From a virus, in the UHGV virus genome UHGV-0121047: DNA of 18,551 bases; one strand, written 5' to 3'. Of the stretch, positions 4,386-16,142 are shown in pieces. Made by a program: the position numbers and the translations under genes. Position 1 is the stretch's first letter. Every line of letters starts with the position of its first letter. Under the pieces are notes generated by a model. It saw nothing but the letters and a program-made list of their open reading frames with translations, had not been told where the DNA came from and did no database searches.

Positions 4386-4729
4386 TACAGTTTCCTCATT
4401 AAATACTTTTTAAGTTGTGTGTTAGGTTTCTCAAAAACTTCTATAGAAGATATCTTGACAGATTCACCACGCATACCAGTATGTTTGAATATGTAATACT
4501 CTAGCATCCCTATGTACTTTGCTGGTAAATCATATTTGACATACACCGTCACAGAATCTTCAAATTCGACAACCTTTGTGCCATCTTTGTAGTTAAACTC
4601 TTTAGGATGGTTGTAGTTGTCTATGTCATACATTAAAAAGAGTCTTTTACGTTGTAAGTCAAGCTTATTTGTTAAAGACTCTTTGATATCTGAGAAGTTT
4701 TTATAGACCGTTACGTGGAGCTTACTCAT
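4385..4729 (-). CDS. hypothetical protein (114 aa)
   Basis: Six-frame ORF; overlaps neighbours by 1 and 8 nt, consistent with translational coupling. Confidence 0.65.
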   Translation of the reverse strand: MSKLHVTVYKNFSDIKESLTNKLDLQRKRLFLMYDIDNYNHPKEFNYKDGTKVVEFEDSVTVYVKYDLPAKYIGMLEYYIFKHTGMRGESVKISSIEVFEKPNTQLKKYLMRKL

Positions 4730-5015
4730 CGTTAAACTCTCTGACGAAGAAATAGTTGACTTTATTATTACCTACCATAAGGTCAAAGCAGGTATTTTCA
4801 AAAGGTTTGTTGTAGGCATCATATGAAACATATGGGTCAGCTACTTGCTTAGTGCTTAACTTCTTACTTGATGGGTTTAAGAGGCCACCATATAGCTTCT
4901 TGATAGCCTCTTCTACAACAGACCAGATGATTTCGTCAGTAATTTCTTCGTACAGGTCAAGTTCACGCTCTAGTGAGAAGTCACAAATAGGGAAAATAAC
5001 CTGCACTTTACTCAT
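4722..5015 (-). CDS. hypothetical protein (97 aa)
   Basis: Six-frame ORF; 1-nt overlap with the upstream gene (TAATG-type junction). Confidence 0.6.
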   Translation of the reverse strand: MSKVQVIFPICDFSLERELDLYEEITDEIIWSVVEEAIKKLYGGLLNPSSKKLSTKQVADPYVSYDAYNKPFENTCFDLMVGNNKVNYFFVREFNDE

Positions 5016-5416
5016 TAACGGATAACCTGTGTGACTTGAATTGCTTCAGTTACTGATAAATCACCTACTTGCTCTTCTTTGATAAAAGTGAAGGTGAGTT
5101 CAACAGGTTCTTCCTCTTCTTCTTCTTGCTTAACTGGAACACCATTAAGCTCATCAAAGATTGATTGAGTTGTCCAGTCTTCTCCACCATCTGGATAGTG
5201 GATTGCATAAAGAGGAAACTCTAAATTGTACCAAGCAAAAACAGGACAACCATCTACATCATCTCGGCATCTGTGGAGATATGTATTTGTACCTTCAAAA
5301 TGCAAATGGAGATTTCCATTCTTCTCAAAGAGAAGAGCATCTTGCAGGTCTAGTTCCTCATTTTCGCTGTAACGACTGACATCAACTTTAACGTGGATAT
5401 GACTGTTATTATTCAT
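5015..5416 (-). CDS. hypothetical acidic protein (133 aa)
   Basis: Six-frame ORF; contains a poly-Glu tract (QEEEEEEPVE). Confidence 0.6.
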   Translation of the reverse strand: MNNNSHIHVKVDVSRYSENEELDLQDALLFEKNGNLHLHFEGTNTYLHRCRDDVDGCPVFAWYNLEFPLYAIHYPDGGEDWTTQSIFDELNGVPVKQEEEEEEPVELTFTFIKEEQVGDLSVTEAIQVTQVIR

Positions 5417-5807
5417 AAAAACCTCTCTCTGCTTGTTCGATTTTTGCTCTTAAAGTTTCGCAATGCTGTAAATGGTAGTTAGCTTCTTGTTCATGTGTTG
5501 CTAACTGCCTTTCCAGAACAGATTTATAGTAACCTGCAAGTTGCTCTTTTGTCAATGGGTGCTCTGAAATAATATCAAGTCCACTTTCACCAAGAGGGTT
5601 GAATTGTCCATGTTCGTTGACATTGTAAGTCTCAAACTTGAACAGGCCATTGTTCACAGACTCAATAGGTGACATCTCAACAAGCTCTACAGTAAACCGT
5701 GTATATACCTTGTCACCTCTTGAAACCACATTGTTCCCGACAATGCGTACAAGCGAGCCATTACGAGTGTACTTAAAAGTTCCAAAGTCACTAGCCCAAA
5801 GCTTCAT
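5409..5807 (-). CDS. hypothetical protein (132 aa)
   Basis: Six-frame ORF immediately downstream (on minus) of a terminator-like hairpin; 8-nt overlap with the next gene. Confidence 0.6.
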   Translation of the reverse strand: MKLWASDFGTFKYTRNGSLVRIVGNNVVSRGDKVYTRFTVELVEMSPIESVNNGLFKFETYNVNEHGQFNPLGESGLDIISEHPLTKEQLAGYYKSVLERQLATHEQEANYHLQHCETLRAKIEQAERGFYE

Positions 5808-5821
5808 AGTTTTCTCCTTAG

Positions 5822-5848
5822 AAAATAAAAAAGGCTCCCGAAGGAGCC
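5822..5848 (-). terminator. Rho-independent terminator (or attenuator) after the lysozyme gene
   Basis: Plus strand AAAATAAAAAA then GGCTCC-CGAA-GGAGCC; on minus this is a 6-bp GC-rich hairpin with tetraloop followed by a T-run. Confidence 0.6.
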
Positions 5849-5858
5849 TATGAAGATA

Positions 5859-6323
5859 TTACTTTGGATATACACTGTCAAGATAAATGTCAGCTTCCAT
5901 TCTACGTCTGTTTTTCAGTCCGTTTGAAGTGACCTTCTGACCTTTGACTGTAACCTTGTTCCACCACTGCATAGCTTCTGCACAACCTACCTTATTACCA
6001 GCATTGTGGCGCTTGATAAATGTAGAATCCTGCATAGCTGTGATACCGATGTTGTATGTTTCACTTACAAGTGCATCGAACTCATTCTGAGAAGTTGGAA
6101 CCTTGATGGCTTTGTTCACTGCTGCAACGAACTTTTCAACATCTGCGAGAAGATACTGTTCAGCTTGTTCAGCAGTAATTTTCATACCCATCTTAACAGG
6201 TTTTCCGTCAATACGGATTGTCCCATACCCAATTGTTGGGATTCCGGCAGAGTCTTCGTAAGCCTCTAACTTCAGACCTTCGAAGAACTTAATAGCATCT
6301 AAACCTTTTCTTGAGAGTTGCAT
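5859..6323 (-). CDS. lysozyme / endolysin, glycoside hydrolase family 24 (T4 lysozyme-like)
   Basis: N-terminal region EGLKLEAYEDSAGIPTIGYG aligns with the T4 lysozyme catalytic region [21 protein letters not shown] (Glu, Asp, Thr conserved); size 154 aa fits. Confidence 0.9.
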   Translation of the reverse strand: MQLSRKGLDAIKFFEGLKLEAYEDSAGIPTIGYGTIRIDGKPVKMGMKITAEQAEQYLLADVEKFVAAVNKAIKVPTSQNEFDALVSETYNIGITAMQDSTFIKRHNAGNKVGCAEAMQWWNKVTVKGQKVTSNGLKNRRRMEADIYLDSVYPK

Positions 6324-7207
6324 TATGCCTCCCCTGCTGGGTTAACTGTAACTGTTGCCGCATTAGATGTTACAGAGCCACCTGCGCCAGTAACTACACA
6401 GGTGTAGCTTCCTGAATCAGCAGCGGTTGCTCCTTCTTTGGTGTAGGTTGCAGTAGTTGCATCGAGGATGTCTTCCTCATCTTTCTTCCACTGATAACCT
6501 GTTGCACCTGTTGCCACAACATTCAACGTTAAGGTCTCACCTTCATTGATTTCTTGATTGGTTGACTGTTGAGTGATGACAGGAAGTGCATTCACAGTCA
6601 CTGTTGCTGCATCTGAGGTAACACTTGTTCCACCCTCTCCAGATACAACACAAGTGTATGAACCAGCATCAGAAGGTGCTACTGACTGTTTTGTGTAAGT
6701 TGCAGAATTGGCACTAGGGATGTCCTCACCATCCTTCTTCCACTGATATCCAGTGGCGTTAGTTGCTAGAATGCTTAGAGTAAGTGTGCCACCCTCATTG
6801 ACTGTTTGACCTGTCGGTTGCTGAGTAATTGCTGGTGGCTTAATAGCATCCTTCAACTTAGCATTCAACATTGAGAACGGCTTAACTCTTGCCAACCATT
6901 CACAGTAAATTGTGTCAACATCTTTACCATTGATGATTGCATACTGCAAATCCATGAAGAAATCAGCAGTTCTCATCTGTGCACCAACACTGTAAAGCAA
7001 TTCATCACTAAATGGAACTTTGTAGTCTGGTTTGTAGTCAAACTTCTCAACTTCTGCAATATCAGCTTCAGGCCAATATGAACTATAGGTAAGTGGTAAA
7101 ATAGCCTCTTGATATGTTCTAAAATCATACCTCTTACCAGCCTTTACATTTGCAATGAAACCCTTCACAAACTCTTTGAAGTCTGGGTAAGTCTTTGCTT
7201 TAATCAT
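6323..7207 (-). CDS. protein with N-terminal domain paralogous to the adjacent gene plus two C-terminal Ig-like repeats (294 aa)
   Basis: Two about 85-aa repeats each containing TGYQWKKDxEDI...SGSYTCVV..TVTVN, typical of Ig-like (I-set/Big-type) domains; N-terminal 120 aa shares the WPExDI...YKP...LLY...FxMDxQY pattern with the 7204-7575 product. Confidence 0.75.
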   Translation of the reverse strand: MIKAKTYPDFKEFVKGFIANVKAGKRYDFRTYQEAILPLTYSSYWPEADIAEVEKFDYKPDYKVPFSDELLYSVGAQMRTADFFMDLQYAIINGKDVDTIYCEWLARVKPFSMLNAKLKDAIKPPAITQQPTGQTVNEGGTLTLSILATNATGYQWKKDGEDIPSANSATYTKQSVAPSDAGSYTCVVSGEGGTSVTSDAATVTVNALPVITQQSTNQEINEGETLTLNVVATGATGYQWKKDEEDILDATTATYTKEGATAADSGSYTCVVTGAGGSVTSNAATVTVNPAGEA

Positions 7208-7575
7208 TTCTTTTTAGCCTCTAAATGTGCGTTTAGTCTAAAATAACCTTTGTGATGCGGAGATACATCACCAACAACAATACCTTTAACCTTATAGCCT
7301 TTACCAATTACATACTGGATATCCATAAGGAATCTTCCAAGTCCAACAATATGGAACATTGGATATAATAGGTTCTCAGAATCTGGAATATTGATTTCAG
7401 GTTTGTAGGTACGCTGTTCGATTGTTGGTGTAATATCTTCTTCAGGCCATTTGCTGAGTCTCCATGTCAAAGGTGTTGGGATAACATCATTAAGGCTGTA
7501 CCTTTCACCATTTTGCACGGAATTGATATAGGATTGTAGGAAGCAATAAAAGTCTTTTGCACTCTTAGCTTTCAT
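7204..7575 (-). CDS. hypothetical protein, paralog of the N-terminal domain of the Ig-like protein (123 aa)
   Basis: Shared motifs with the 6323-7207 product (MxKAK..DF, GxRY, WPEEDI, YKP, LLY, MDxQY, LNAxL); ATGA start/stop overlap at 7204-7207. Confidence 0.7.
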   Translation of the reverse strand: MKAKSAKDFYCFLQSYINSVQNGERYSLNDVIPTPLTWRLSKWPEEDITPTIEQRTYKPEINIPDSENLLYPMFHIVGLGRFLMDIQYVIGKGYKVKGIVVGDVSPHHKGYFRLNAHLEAKKK

Positions 7576-7622
7576 TAAATATCCTTATAAATAGTTAAAG
7601 GGGCATCAGCCCCTATTCACAC

Positions 7623-8213
7623 TTAAGCTTTGGTCTTAAGTAGGTTCTTAAGTTTTTTAAGATTCATACTCTCATCAAACTTAAAACCAAATCCATTGAC
7701 ATAATCAATGAACTCGGATTTCTTACTGAGTGACAATGCGTAACTCATATCAAAGTTCTTACTTGTTTCTGCGTCTGGACTAGAGTTCACATCAAATGAA
7801 ATTTCTGTAGGCTCTTGCTTACTTTTTCTCATATTATCAGTCAACAAACATGTATAGTTTGCTGGATAGAAGTTTACACTCCCATCAACGTAGCTGTACT
7901 TATTATTATGGATAAGGTTGGAAAATACCTTAAGGAATGTTTCTGAGTCGTGGCAAACAAGTTTGAATTGGCTGCTCTCTCCAAGCGCAACTAATGAGTA
8001 CGGACTTTCACTATCAAAGTCATAATTTGGATTTGATGCCGTCACTGTTACACGCATCAAGTTATTAGCAATAGTCTTCTGTTTAAAAGAATTTTGAACA
8101 TAGTGAAGACCCCTCTCACACTGATTGACTAGCTCTTTAAGTAGGTCATTTGCATATGGTGAGTTAATTGATACAGAGCCGTCACTATTGTAATTAAAAC
8201 TTACTGTTAACAT
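7623..8213 (-). CDS. hypothetical protein (196 aa)
   Basis: Six-frame ORF; no recognisable motif. Confidence 0.65.
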   Translation of the reverse strand: MLTVSFNYNSDGSVSINSPYANDLLKELVNQCERGLHYVQNSFKQKTIANNLMRVTVTASNPNYDFDSESPYSLVALGESSQFKLVCHDSETFLKVFSNLIHNNKYSYVDGSVNFYPANYTCLLTDNMRKSKQEPTEISFDVNSSPDAETSKNFDMSYALSLSKKSEFIDYVNGFGFKFDESMNLKKLKNLLKTKA

Positions 8214-13801: not shown

Positions 13802-14359
13802 ATGAGATATTTGAAGTATGCTTCATGGATTTTCCTAGCTTTACTAGAACCATTTGCAGCATCCCTAGCAGTCATCTTAGCACCTTTCGTAGTTCCATTC
13901 TACAGTGAGAAGAAAGGACATCTACCTTTTGGATTCAGATGGATGGAGACCTATGACAACCCGATTGATGGTGATGAAGGCCACGTTAAAAGATGGGCTA
14001 AGATTAGAAAGATTGGTAAGCTGGGTGTCTACATGCAGAGAGTTGGATGGCTCTGGAGAAACAAAGCTTATAACTTCTCTTACCATGTACTAGGAAGAGA
14101 TATAAAAGATGTTACTAAGTGGAAAGGTAATATCAACGTAAGTTCTGACCCTGAAGATAATCAGACTGGTTATCTCCTAATGTGGAACAGTAATGCTTGG
14201 GGATTATTCGCTTTTATCCCATCAATTAAAGTCTTTGGTAAACAGTTTTACTGGAGAATTTATATTGGATGGAAACTAAAAAGTGTTGTCCCAGAAGAAA
14301 GAGCACTCTCAAGGGAAAGAGTTATGTTGGCATTCTTTATTCATCCACTGAGAAAGTAA
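13802..14359 (+). CDS. hypothetical membrane protein embedded in the tRNA array (185 aa)
   Basis: ATG 13802 with AAGAGG 11 nt upstream; N-terminal hydrophobic helix (SWIFLALLEPFAASLAVILAPFVVPF); Trp-rich body; flanked on both sides by tRNA genes. Confidence 0.7.
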   Translation: MRYLKYASWIFLALLEPFAASLAVILAPFVVPFYSEKKGHLPFGFRWMETYDNPIDGDEGHVKRWAKIRKIGKLGVYMQRVGWLWRNKAYNFSYHVLGRDIKDVTKWKGNINVSSDPEDNQTGYLLMWNSNAWGLFAFIPSIKVFGKQFYWRIYIGWKLKSVVPEERALSRERVMLAFFIHPLRK

Positions 14360-14367
14360 AGATTTAA

Positions 14368-14440
14368 AGGGGATTAGTTTACAAGGTTAAAACCTCGGTC
14401 TTTGAAATCGAAGAAGTTGGTTCAATTCCAACATCCCCCG
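14368..14440 (+). tRNA. tRNA-Gln (anticodon TTG)
   Basis: Anticodon arm TCGGT-CTTTGAA-ATCGA, T arm GTTGG-TTCAATT-CCAAC, acceptor AGGGGAT/ATCCCCC with unpaired 1:72, CCA encoded. Confidence 0.75.
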
Positions 14441-14445
14441 CCAAT

Positions 14446-14520
14446 GCTCCATTACTCCAATTGGCAGAGAGGCCAGACTTAAAATCTGTGTTATGTATCG
14501 GTTCGAATCCGATATGGAGT
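14446..14520 (+). tRNA. tRNA with Leu anticodon TAA but class I architecture
   Basis: Acceptor GCTCCAT/ATGGAGT, D region CCAATTGGCAGAG shared with the CAA tRNA, anticodon loop CTTAAAA, T arm ATCGG-TTCGAAT-CCGAT, CCA encoded. Confidence 0.6.
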
Positions 14521-14529
14521 ACCAAATTT

Positions 14530-14602
14530 AGCGGTATAGCATAACTGGCAATGCAGCAGCCTCTGAAGCTGTCCTATTAAGGTTCAAATCCTTATGCCGC
14601 TG
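14530..14602 (+). tRNA. tRNA-Gln (anticodon CTG)
   Basis: D arm GCAT/ATGC, anticodon arm GCAGC-CTCTGAA-GCTGT, T arm TAAGG-TTCAAAT-CCTTA, acceptor AGCGGTA/TGCCGCT, CCA encoded. Confidence 0.8.
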
Positions 14603-14636
14603 CCACTTCTAAGGATTCTTACGAGAGTCCTTAAAT

Positions 14637-14709
14637 GTGGCCTTATCATAAATGGTAATGACCCATGCTGTGAACATGGTCTATACGGGTTCAAATCCCG
14701 TAGGTCACC
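14637..14709 (+). tRNA. tRNA-His (anticodon GTG)
   Basis: D arm TCAT/ATGA, anticodon arm CCATG-CTGTGAA-CATGG, T arm ACGGG-TTCAAAT-CCCGT, discriminator C (bacterial His-type), CCA encoded. Confidence 0.8.
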
Positions 14710-14717
14710 CCAATTTA

Positions 14718-14792
14718 TAGTCCAAGTAGCTTATATGGTTAAAGCGCGTGTCTGAAAAACATGAGAAGAGGGTTCAAATCCCACTGGACTAC
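14718..14792 (+). tRNA. tRNA-Phe (anticodon GAA)
   Basis: Perfect acceptor TAGTCCA/TGGACTA, D arm GCTT/AAGC, anticodon arm CGTGT-CTGAAAA-ACACG, T-loop GGTTCAAATCC; 4-nt acceptor-to-D linker, so exact ends are uncertain by 1-2 nt. Confidence 0.65.
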
Positions 14793-14810
14793 CAATTTCA
14801 AAGGTGCTTA

Positions 14811-15545
14811 ATGAAAGAGATGACAGAACAAGGTAAGGAGATTTTTAATCTCTTAAAAACCGGTAAAGGGTTTTCTAACCCACTTATTACTGGTGCAGCA
14901 GTTCTCGGTGGAACCGTAGCTGCCTCTACATCACTTGTAAGCTCTATTAGCTCTGTAACAGACCCTACAATGAAGGAGAAGCTTGTTGCTGCTGGACTTA
15001 CAACAGTCCTTCTAAACAGCTTTACAACAAGCCTGACAAGCACTACAGCAACTACTAAGACCCTAACAGACTATGGTCAAAAGTCTATTGATGAGTTTTC
15101 ATCACGTATGCAGGTAGCAAAGGGATACTCCAATGTTATGGGTGCAGCAGGAGAACAAGTTGGTTGTACACCATTCAGTGGTATTATGGGTGTTGCTACA
15201 GAATATGGTCAAAAAGCTATTGACATGATGAACAGTACACTAGATAGTGTTAATGGTGTGTTAAGTGACTTACAAGACGCTATTGATAAGGGTCTTGATA
15301 CTGTTTCTGATTTGGCTAACCAAGCTGTTAGCAAGATTAATGAAGGTATCTCAAAGATTACAGCTTATGCAGATGAAGTTGTGCAGATGATTGAAGAAGA
15401 AGCTGCCCTTATTGCAGAGTACCTTAAAACGAATATCAATGGGTTCTTAGCAGGTATCTTACCAGACTGGTTTGATGATGCTTGTAAAACTGGTGTAATC
15501 GACACTATTGCAACACCAGAAATGAAGAACGCATTGCAGAAATAA
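14811..15545 (+). CDS. hypothetical Ser/Thr-rich protein embedded in the tRNA array (244 aa)
   Basis: In-frame ATG at 14811 with AAAGG 6 nt upstream; the six-frame ORF start at 14748 would lie inside tRNA-Phe and is rejected; Ser/Thr/Ala-rich N-terminal half, helical C-terminal half. Confidence 0.7.
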   Translation: MKEMTEQGKEIFNLLKTGKGFSNPLITGAAVLGGTVAASTSLVSSISSVTDPTMKEKLVAAGLTTVLLNSFTTSLTSTTATTKTLTDYGQKSIDEFSSRMQVAKGYSNVMGAAGEQVGCTPFSGIMGVATEYGQKAIDMMNSTLDSVNGVLSDLQDAIDKGLDTVSDLANQAVSKINEGISKITAYADEVVQMIEEEAALIAEYLKTNINGFLAGILPDWFDDACKTGVIDTIATPEMKNALQK

Positions 15546-15546
15546 T

Positions 15547-15635
15547 GGAAGATTAACCCTAAAAGGTAAGGGAGCAGTTTGCTAAACTGCCAGTAGCTGA
15601 GAAATCGGTGTACCAGTTCAAGTCTGGTATCTTCC
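15547..15635 (+). tRNA. tRNA-Ser (anticodon GCT), class II
   Basis: Perfect acceptor GGAAGAT/ATCTTCC, anticodon arm GCAGT-TTGCTAA-ACTGC, 19-nt variable arm, T arm ACCAG-TTCAAGT-CTGGT, CCA encoded. Confidence 0.8.
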
Positions 15636-15642
15636 TCCAATT

Positions 15643-15715
15643 TGAATCCGTGACAGAAATGGATATGTGCCTGTCTGCAAAACAGGTTTATAAGGGTTCA
15701 AGTCCCTTCGGATTC
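15643..15715 (+). tRNA. tRNA-Cys (anticodon GCA)
   Basis: Perfect acceptor GAATCCG/CGGATTC, anticodon arm CCTGT-CTGCAAA-ACAGG, T-loop GGTTCAAGTCC, CCA encoded. Confidence 0.8.
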
Positions 15716-15756
15716 TCCAAGTTATTTTACTCTCTCTCAATTAAAATAATAATAAT

Positions 15757-15881: not shown

Positions 15882-15905
15882 GACGGTCTCTGTGCCGTCT
15901 TTTTT
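15882..15905 (+). terminator. Rho-independent terminator
   Basis: GACGG (15882-15886) / CCGTC (15895-15899) with 8-nt loop, followed by TTTTTT (15900-15905). Confidence 0.6.
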
Positions 15906-15941
15906 AAGGGGAAACATGGTTAATTATTTGGAGAAAACATA

Positions 15942-16142
15942 ATGAGCGAGACCGTTTATAAAGAACTTTATGAAGCTAATAAAAAGCTAGAATTTATGCA
16001 GAACACTATCATGGCAATTGCAGATAGATTATCTGTAGCAACAGGTATTGATATTAAAGAAGCATCTATGGATGCACTTCTTGATGCTGTTGATGCAAAG
16101 TTCGAAGTTAAGAAAGAAGAGACTGCTACAGACTCTGAATAA
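15942..16142 (+). CDS. small acidic hypothetical protein immediately upstream of the terminase large subunit (66 aa)
   Basis: ATG 15942 with GGAG about 8 nt upstream; position suggests a packaging-associated protein but 66 aa is short for a small terminase. Confidence 0.55.
   Translation: MSETVYKELYEANKKLEFMQNTIMAIADRLSVATGIDIKEASMDALLDAVDAKFEVKKEETATDSE

Follow-up and report, generated by a model that had tools for sequence, protein, structure and literature searches.

The window analysed here is an 18,551-nucleotide (nt) stretch of the UHGV virus genome UHGV-0121047, and the subject of this study is a pair of protein genes, ORF A and ORF B, embedded in its tRNA array. ARAGORN detected 23 tRNA genes at 10867-15719, every one of them on the + strand, and the two open reading frames (ORFs) are wedged between these same-strand genes as the first-pass annotation had described, with coordinates and lengths that proved exact (Table 1). 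The spacers measure 1-19 nt: ORF A starts 19 nt after the end of tRNA-Leu(CAA) and its stop is followed by tRNA-Gln after 8 nt, while ORF B starts 16 nt after tRNA-Phe and stops 1 nt ahead of tRNA-Ser. The gene order in the window runs from a divergent early cluster through a DUF5681 gene, a gene for a 471-amino-acid (aa) vWFA/Ro60-like protein, the tRNA array and a 66-aa ORF to the large terminase and the portal. Escherichia phage finno shares 98.8% identity with the 2.2-kb region, which is matched by 292 phage records, with near-complete coverage in 216, nearly all of them from Felixounavirus or other Ounavirinae. Judged from sequence, the source of the window is a Felixounavirus, a Felix O1-like myovirus, and the gene order around the array from the early cluster to the portal is consistent with this placement. 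ORF A corresponds to ORF48 of Felix O1 (NP_944875) and to gp153 of Bas63 (97% identity), and ORF B to ORF49 of Felix O1 (NP_944879) and to gp159 of Bas63 (95% identity). In both phages the orthologues occupy the same slots between the same tRNA genes, and Felix O1 differs only by an extra tRNA-Arg before ORF48 and by three HNH genes elsewhere in the array.

Several lines of evidence indicate that ORF A and ORF B are genuine genes and not chance reading frames. ORF A matches the Pfam family DUF7338 (PF24027; E 4.2e-61; 206.2 bits, curated gathering cut-off 27; residues 1-184 aligned to positions 1-176 of the 180-position model) and ORF B the family DUF7217 (PF23854; E 1.7e-87; 293.5 bits, curated gathering cut-off 29; residues 8-243 aligned to positions 2-238 of the 238-position model). 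Absence or frameshifting throughout the relatives was not what we found: both ORFs are unbroken and unchanged in length in Felix O1, VpaE1, finno and GEC_vB_B1, and they are intact in more than 200 relatives. The ratio of nonsynonymous to synonymous substitution rates (dN/dS) was 0.03-0.16 for ORF B and 0.05-0.32 in nine of ten pairs for ORF A (0.64 in the remaining pair, which has only seven differences), values that point to purifying selection on both genes, and the GC content of both equals that of the genome. The genes themselves are already catalogued: the Felix O1 genome paper listed them in 2010, hundreds of genomes carry their annotation, and they define two Pfam DUF families; a literature search gave no mention of DUF7338 or DUF7217. 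What is new here is the rejection of two annotations carried by these genes, the lysis and tail-fibre neighbourhood of DUF7338, and the links of DUF7217 to PAAR proteins, tape-measure proteins and the virion. We propose, with about equal confidence and doubt, a joint explanation in which ORF A is an envelope-directed accessory protein and ORF B a low-copy virion protein, both co-transcribed with the tRNA array.

Genes embedded in phage tRNA clusters had been suggested from the sequence to be accessory, and this holds in one sense for both genes, as the knockouts of both Bas63 orthologues are viable on laboratory Escherichia coli. As a statement on inserted cargo it holds for ORF A, which is absent from Erwinia Kolesnikvirus and is found at about 60% identity in unrelated T4-like phages, and fails for ORF B, which both Ounavirinae and Ackermannviridae have kept. 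In agreement with the earlier motif inspection, neither is a homing endonuclease, for no HNH, GIY-YIG or LAGLIDADG Pfam match was obtained at E <= 1. The idea of defence-related factors found no backing, since there was no usable match in PADLOC or NCBIfam: ORF A gave none, and ORF B gave sub-threshold ZorA/JetC coiled-coil noise.

The N-terminal transmembrane helix and the Trp-rich body ascribed to ORF A were borne out by the analysis, with a hydrophobic helix at residues 9-27 (Kyte-Doolittle 2.11; AlphaFold helix 2-33) and 10 Trp (5.4%). The AlphaFold model is confident (pLDDT, the predicted local distance difference test, 94.8) and consists of the membrane helix 2-33 and an alpha+beta domain, made up of a small helical subdomain with the invariant motifs and a five-stranded antiparallel sheet. 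In the helical subdomain the motifs read WMETYDNPIDGD...WLWRNxxY, and in the family W-M/L-x-T-x-D-N-x-x-D-G-D and W-L-W-R-N-x-x-Y. ORF A matches DUF7338/phrog_2143 over its full length with every invariant motif kept. For the predicted fold no solved or characterised match was found, and in a profile search of PDB sequences neither ORF A nor ORF B had a match; DUF7338 is a confidently folded family without a characterised structural relative. The charges flanking the helix (N-flank +2.65, C-flank +0.7) mildly favour the N-in orientation. In our reading ORF A would be a mobile accessory gene whose product has a predicted single-helix inner-membrane anchor and a very basic, Trp-rich globular domain.

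The distribution of DUF7338 is patchy. The gene is found in Felixounavirus, Suspvirus and Citrobacter relatives and is missing from Erwinia Kolesnikvirus, where ORF B remains. At 55-62% identity it is present in many T4-like phages (RB43, S16, JS10, and Klebsiella, Enterobacter and Cronobacter phages), more distant copies are carried by Aeh1, jumbo Serratia phages and metagenomic phages, and it is found also in lambdoid and Mu-like contigs. In JS10, S16 and RB43 DUF7338 lies directly downstream of tRNA genes, and small co-oriented protein genes are likewise wedged among the phage tRNA genes in the tRNA region of T4 (tRNA.2-.4 and neighbours). However, the tRNA region that holds DUF7338 in the T4-like phages also borders the e lysozyme gene, which differs from the setting of ORF A, and the tRNA link of the family may be secondary to a link with lysis.

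Elsewhere DUF7338 stands mostly beside lysis or tail-fibre genes, in contrast to ORF A inside the tRNA array. The order in Aeh1 is long tail fibre, DUF7338, e lysozyme and Rz-like spanin; in a Mu-like contig tail fibre, tail-fibre assembly protein, DUF7338, small membrane protein, GH108 endolysin and Rz; in another contig Gly-rich tail fibre, DUF7338, hol-like protein, M15 peptidase endolysin and Rz-like spanin; and in a lambdoid contig holin, lysozyme, Rz, Rz1, DUF7338 and terminase. For a survey of the neighbours, 97 loci were reduced to 24 lineages at 70% identity, of which 22 were scanned over three genes to either side (128 proteins). The commonest Pfam neighbours were Phage_lysozyme and the tail-fibre Gly-rich domain (three each), followed by single occurrences of Amidase_3, GH108, Peptidase_M15_4, Rz and LysC, and among the PHROG annotations endolysin, tail fibre and tail-fibre assembly ranked highest. 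Six endolysin neighbours in these 22 lineages have a chance probability of 2e-2 to 1e-5, varying with the genome size assumed. As the endolysins span four catalytic families (Phage_lysozyme, Amidase_3, GH108 and Peptidase_M15_4), the linkage of DUF7338 to lysis is not one inherited block. We also observed a protein on a 1.2-kb metagenomic contig (P0034) with DUF7338 as its N-terminal half and a Gp53-like tail-fibre tip domain as its C-terminal half, which is a chimera made in assembly or else a true fusion of genes that adjoin in related phages.

Because the usual site of the family is the junction of tail-fibre and lysis genes, an auxiliary role in the envelope around lysis is the most likely function, and we tentatively favour a lysis-accessory role for ORF A, while rating it somewhat below an even chance. 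ORF A would act on the cell envelope around lysis, either by tuning lysis or by helping to breach the outer layers, and in the Felix O1-like phages it would have been relocated into the tRNA array from a lysis/adsorption neighbourhood. The recurrence of DUF7338 at this junction in very different phages of Gram-negative hosts makes it a reasonable candidate for an undescribed envelope-directed function. Several points weigh against the lysis-accessory role. ORF A of the window phage is far from the endolysin gene, and the neighbourhood association is circumstantial, tail-fibre/lysis junctions being general hot spots for unrelated cargo. In addition, the net charge of the C-terminal domain ranges from +10 to +17 in the family, and exported domains are not usually so basic; the invariant polar residues T50, D52, N53, R86, N87 and Y90 would also suit an enzyme.

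Some ORF A homologues are annotated as 'holin' (GenBank records of GEC_vB_B1 gp063, Citrobacter phage HP1 and EcoM2; 'holin*' in the Bas63 screen). On this view ORF A would be a class III holin like T of T4, built of a single membrane helix and a large domain in the periplasm, that lets the endolysin through the membrane. The gross architecture is indeed alike, as one N-terminal helix is followed by a domain of about 150 aa in ORF A and of 150-170 aa in the comparison with T; DUF7338 adjoins the endolysin in some phages and comes first in a cassette continuing with endolysin and spanin in Aeh1 and two metagenomic phages; and according to the Felix O1 authors there is no holin beside the endolysin. 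However, neither sequence nor profile similarity connects ORF A to T: the hhalign probability is 0.2%, and ORF A has no match to PF11031, to which T itself scores 394 bits. The T4-like Klebsiella phage PMBT1 has both DUF7338 and a true T holin, the lambdoid contig has DUF7338 together with a class II holin, and the Erwinia relatives, which still must lyse their hosts, lack the gene. Its invariant polar motifs and compact domain are unlike the typical fast-diverging holins. In the published Bas63 knockout screen, in which essential (structural) genes score -2 to -3.5, loss of gp153 was viable with positive fitness (+0.75 to +0.9 in MG1655, +0.75 to +1.85 across two hosts), whereas loss of another holin candidate, g29, was harmful (-1.4 to -1.7); gp153 may, however, be redundant with another holin. 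The 'holin' annotation is therefore unsupported and ORF A is not the essential holin; a holin function of any kind is in our estimate very unlikely. A less improbable alternative, though still one we doubt, is superinfection exclusion or receptor masking, in which a periplasmic domain would block incoming DNA or keep progeny off debris. The logic would be analogous to that of HK97 gp15, T4 Imm and Sp, and T5 Llp. Such a role would suit the predicted membrane anchor, the patchy, horizontally transferred distribution in virulent phages of Gram-negative hosts, the fact that in Aeh1, Kodama and two metagenomic phages its immediate neighbours include tail-fibre or depolymerase-like genes, and the full dispensability of the orthologue in single-phage laboratory growth. 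Against this, ORF A showed no homology or fold likeness to known exclusion proteins, in the lambdoid contig and in S16 DUF7338 adjoins lysis genes and has no tail fibre in its vicinity, and the charge analysis points both ways as to a periplasmic side for the domain, with flanks that favour N-in and a C-domain of +10 to +17.

Turning to ORF B, the Ser/Thr-rich composition noted earlier was reproduced (19.7% Ser+Thr), and the AlphaFold model (pLDDT 93.6) is an all-helical bundle with helices 30-57 residues long. The N-terminal GxxFxNPL motif and two Cys (C119 and C225) are invariant, and both features are kept in far more distant members. Full-length homologues are present in all Ounavirinae, including the Erwinia phages (44% identity), and throughout Ackermannviridae (26-30%). 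In the Erwinia phages the gene lies past the tRNA array, just before a small ORF and the large terminase, and this position outside the array suggests that the tRNA genes have accreted around ORF B. ORF B thus appears to have long been settled at the border of the packaging/morphogenesis module, with tRNA genes accumulating around it, and not to be cargo inserted among them. In the three Ackermannviridae phages examined, the homologue is located between the head genes and a gp3-like tail-completion gene.

An exhaustive DUF7217 profile search gave 181 cluster representatives, mostly stand-alone proteins of 220-300 aa. The profile also matched several giant tape-measure proteins (TMPs) with E down to 3e-12 and in multiple stretches per protein, and one 454-aa relative matches phrog_2114 and TMP phrogs alike. 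The helical segments of the TMPs are weakly similar in sequence to ORF B, but ORF B, at 244 aa, stands alone and is encoded at a distance from the tail genes, and the phage has a separate TMP (Bas63 gp17); with the similarity limited to segments, we rejected ORF B as the TMP itself. A long form of 550-620 aa with an N-terminal DUF7217 domain was found on 16 viral contigs (IMG/VR, L153-L168, about 5200-7900). At all 16 loci a PAAR or PAAR-lysozyme gene directly precedes the long DUF7217 gene, within 10 nt or overlapping it; a gene with an Mtd_N (tropism-determinant) domain is found upstream and a PrkA-type kinase gene downstream. The 16 contigs are one diverging lineage and were counted as one conserved association, not sixteen. 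A tape-measure position for the long proteins was considered and is wrong, as their neighbours are an exonuclease, the PAAR protein and the PrkA kinase. Finally, the 500-aa phrog_289 'GTP-binding domain' weakly matches the C-terminal half of ORF B (E 1.5e-18), which hints that a fused GTP-binding/DUF7217 form may exist elsewhere. In Ackermannviridae, as in Salmonella phage kage (L005, 6289-6961), a small 'GTP-binding protein' gene is found two genes upstream of the DUF7217 gene.

The homologue of ORF B that ties the family to the virion is LIMEstone1 ORF129 (25.03 kDa), which was classed as an 'unknown structural protein' and detected in virions by electrospray ionisation tandem mass spectrometry (ESI-MS/MS) with two peptides and 18% coverage. 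The LIMEstone authors state that each unknown structural protein has a counterpart in the ViI virion. ORF129 belongs with the Ackermannviridae homologues of DUF7217/phrog_2114, which match ORF B over the full length and share the GxxFxNPL motif and the two Cys. On the other hand, the identity is only 26-30%, and the detection in virions concerns the LIMEstone1 homologue, with no clear counterpart among Ounavirinae members. Confident homology to routine structural proteins had been named as a finding that would speak against an accessory gene; such homology exists in so far as ORF129 is a virion-detected protein, and does not in so far as no routine structural protein of known role was matched. 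We consider that ORF B may be a low-copy virion protein tied to the tail or ejection apparatus and non-essential in the laboratory, a proposal for which the case in favour and the case against are about equal. ORF B would be made in the cytoplasm as a soluble helical-bundle protein. Knockout of gp159 in Bas63 was near-neutral (-0.14 to +0.71).

There are also observations that count against a place in the virion. The LIMEstone1 detection consists of two peptides, and the same proteome held the non-structural DNA ligase, PhoH and clamp loader. ORF B had no match among PDB chains, though the virion chains of Bas63 and Sf14 were included; gp159 is not one of the 22 gene products, out of 23 or more, for which the electron cryomicroscopy (cryo-EM) study of Bas63 built models; and the table of Sf14 structural proteins lacks ORF B. 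The similarity to TMPs may be partly compositional. The only proteomic claim from Ounavirinae comes from the Felix O1 paper (PMC3185647), which calls Gp49 structural in its abstract, but its 'gp49' is a 51-kDa major band that is sheath-like by synteny and mass, whereas RefSeq ORF49 (L006, 8772-9506) is 25.7 kDa. This probably reflects a numbering mismatch, and it was not counted as proteomic support.

The main alternative is a non-structural cytoplasmic protein, for example an assembly or packaging helper near the terminase, with the LIMEstone1 detection as carry-over of the kind implied by the ligase, PhoH and clamp loader. This alternative, which we regard as possible but rather unlikely, is consistent with the place of the gene throughout Ounavirinae, two positions ahead of the large terminase, with its absence from the Bas63 and Sf14 structures and from the Sf14 table, and with the near-neutral knockout. 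However, the Ackermannviridae homologue is away from the terminase genes, in a slot between head and gp3-like genes that is constant in the three phages, the LIMEstone paper gives every unknown structural protein a ViI virion counterpart, and the PAAR linkage and tape-measure similarity indicate the tail. ORF B as the small terminase was likewise rejected, by inference, as Bas63 can do without it but not without the large terminase, and as in Ackermannviridae it is apart from the terminase. In many records ORF B is instead called a 'putative membrane protein', which would make it an integral membrane protein acting in the host envelope. The basis is a hydrophobic stretch at residues 25-43 (Kyte-Doolittle 1.62) in the Felixounavirus version of the protein, together with weak profile matches to ZorA/MotA-type helical regions. 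The stretch is at threshold, however, and is absent in the Erwinia and Ackermannviridae homologues, AlphaFold buries it confidently within the soluble bundle, the protein is acidic (isoelectric point, pI, 4.5) and without a signal peptide, and the ZorA matches are far under the cut-off (16 bits versus 100-500). The membrane annotation is unsupported, and of the alternatives for ORF B we find it the hardest to believe. Both labels, 'holin' and 'membrane protein', are spreading in Felixounavirus records, including those of phages proposed for therapy and biocontrol, in spite of being unsupported.

Returning to ORF B as a virion protein, a more specific location can be suggested. Cryo-EM maps of Bas63 and Sf14 contain an unassigned helix-rich density with three-fold symmetry that rings the tail-spike tip and reaches past it, and the named baseplate components of Bas63 (gp17-21 and gp23-25) are all assigned to other parts. 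The fold of ORF B with its long helices, the virion-associated homologue and the long form, which is translationally coupled to a PAAR or PAAR-lysozyme gene, make it a candidate for this spike-tip density. DUF7217 proteins would then partner the spike/PAAR tip and enter the envelope at infection, and a dispensable spike cap would plausibly fit the near-neutral gp159 knockout. That gp159 is this density and that DUF7217 is a widespread tail-tip/ejection family is nevertheless improbable in our judgement, but it offers a concrete candidate for a density left unassigned by two Felixounavirus cryo-EM studies.

The signals around the two genes are listed in Table 1 with the other features of the window. 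Because the spacers of 16-19 nt ahead of the start codons are too short for a sigma-70 promoter, ORF A and ORF B would have no promoters of their own. The simplest reading of the layout is that the tRNA array and both ORFs form one or two polycistronic tRNA/mRNA precursors. Going by the anatomy, ORF A and ORF B would be transcribed together with the array, and the ends of their messages would arise where RNase P and RNase E process the tRNAs on either side; with no space for promoters, the messages are presumably freed by this cleavage. The only good promoter consensus matches, candidates for driving this polycistron, stand ahead of the first tRNA (10811-10840) and at 12229-12257. Against this it has to be said that the promoter and terminator matches are not above the expectation from shuffled sequence. 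An alternative GTG start of ORF B at 14748 would overlap tRNA-Phe, and the Felix O1 annotation uses another start.

Table 1. Positions of ORF A, ORF B, the flanking tRNA genes, candidate signals and other features in the window.
Feature	Position	Strand	Remarks
DUF5681 gene	8833-9204	+	123 aa; first gene of the rightward transcription unit
vWFA/'RNA-binding'/DUF2828 gene	9286-10701	+	471 aa; directly upstream of the tRNA array
Sigma-70-like match, candidate promoter	10811-10840	+	TTGACA-18-TAAAGT with TG extension; just upstream of the first tRNA; consensus only
tRNA-Met	11123-11199	+	ARAGORN; below Rfam gathering level
tRNA-Tyr	11370-11457	+	ARAGORN; below Rfam gathering level
tRNA-like gene	11463-11545	+	Rfam tRNA model, 45 bits
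Spacer	11546-11978		433 nt
Four successive hairpins	11735-11850	+
Second sigma-70-like match, candidate promoter	12229-12257	+	11/12 positions; consensus only
tRNA-like gene	12462-12540	+	Rfam tRNA model, 33 bits
tRNA-Leu(CAA)	13705-13782	+	directly upstream of ORF A
Shine-Dalgarno-like AAGAGG	13788-13793	+	8 nt before ORF A start; read from sequence
ORF A	13802-14359	+	ATG start; 185 aa, 21.9 kDa, pI 9.9; Pfam DUF7338 / phrog_2143
Five tRNA genes (Gln-TTG, Leu-TAA, Gln-CTG, His, Phe)	14368-14794	+	separate ORF A and ORF B
Shine-Dalgarno-like AAAGGTG	14800-14806	+	precedes ORF B start
ORF B	14811-15545	+	ATG start; 244 aa, 25.7 kDa, pI 4.5; Pfam DUF7217 / phrog_2114
tRNA-Ser(GCT), then tRNA-Cys	15547-15719	+	begins 1 nt past ORF B stop; end of the array
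Terminator-like hairpin GACGGTCTCTGTGCCGTC, then T run	15882-15907	+	past the last tRNA, ahead of the 66-aa ORF and the large terminase
66-aa ORF	15942-16142		precedes the large terminase

The array itself is a site of frequent gain and loss. Compared with Felix O1, the window lacks the HNH endonuclease genes ORF44, ORF45 and ORF47 (window 11457-13127 against 4531-7227 of the Felix O1 locus) and the tRNA-Arg preceding ORF48. Two tRNA-like genes that were missed by ARAGORN and found with the Rfam tRNA model occupy the sites of tRNA-Asp and tRNA-Arg in the relatives. Conversely, the tRNA-Met and tRNA-Tyr genes of ARAGORN score below the Rfam gathering level, and the Felix O1 listing gives the Tyr gene as a pseudo-tRNA. 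The 433-nt spacer has 92% identity to Suspvirus loci, and two other spacers have 96-98% identity to their best-matching Felixounavirus loci, a difference in likeness that suggests mosaic exchange. Within this spacer there are four successive hairpins in an order like that of a circularly permuted tRNA, namely a T-arm (GAAGG-TTCGATT-CCTTC), then a 7-bp 'acceptor' hairpin (ACTCGAC-AGAT-GTCGAGT), and after it a D-arm-like hairpin and a long arm. The stretch folds with an energy that is not unusual (z -1.1), and the element may be what is left of a tRNA, or else a stable small RNA.

Two of the neighbouring genes deserve mention. The 471-aa protein encoded directly upstream of the array is a homologue of Bas63 gp130, which a preprint describes as Ro60-like and as countering a host defence system that is named ppl in one passage and hhe in another; the same preprint suggests that some of the 'tRNAs' may be Y-RNA-like partners. 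In the annotated regions viewed, no small terminase subunit was seen. The DUF5681 gene and the 66-aa ORF are candidates for it, and g129, the Bas63 counterpart of the DUF5681 gene, is among the most essential genes of that phage (-3.1 to -3.5 in MG1655).

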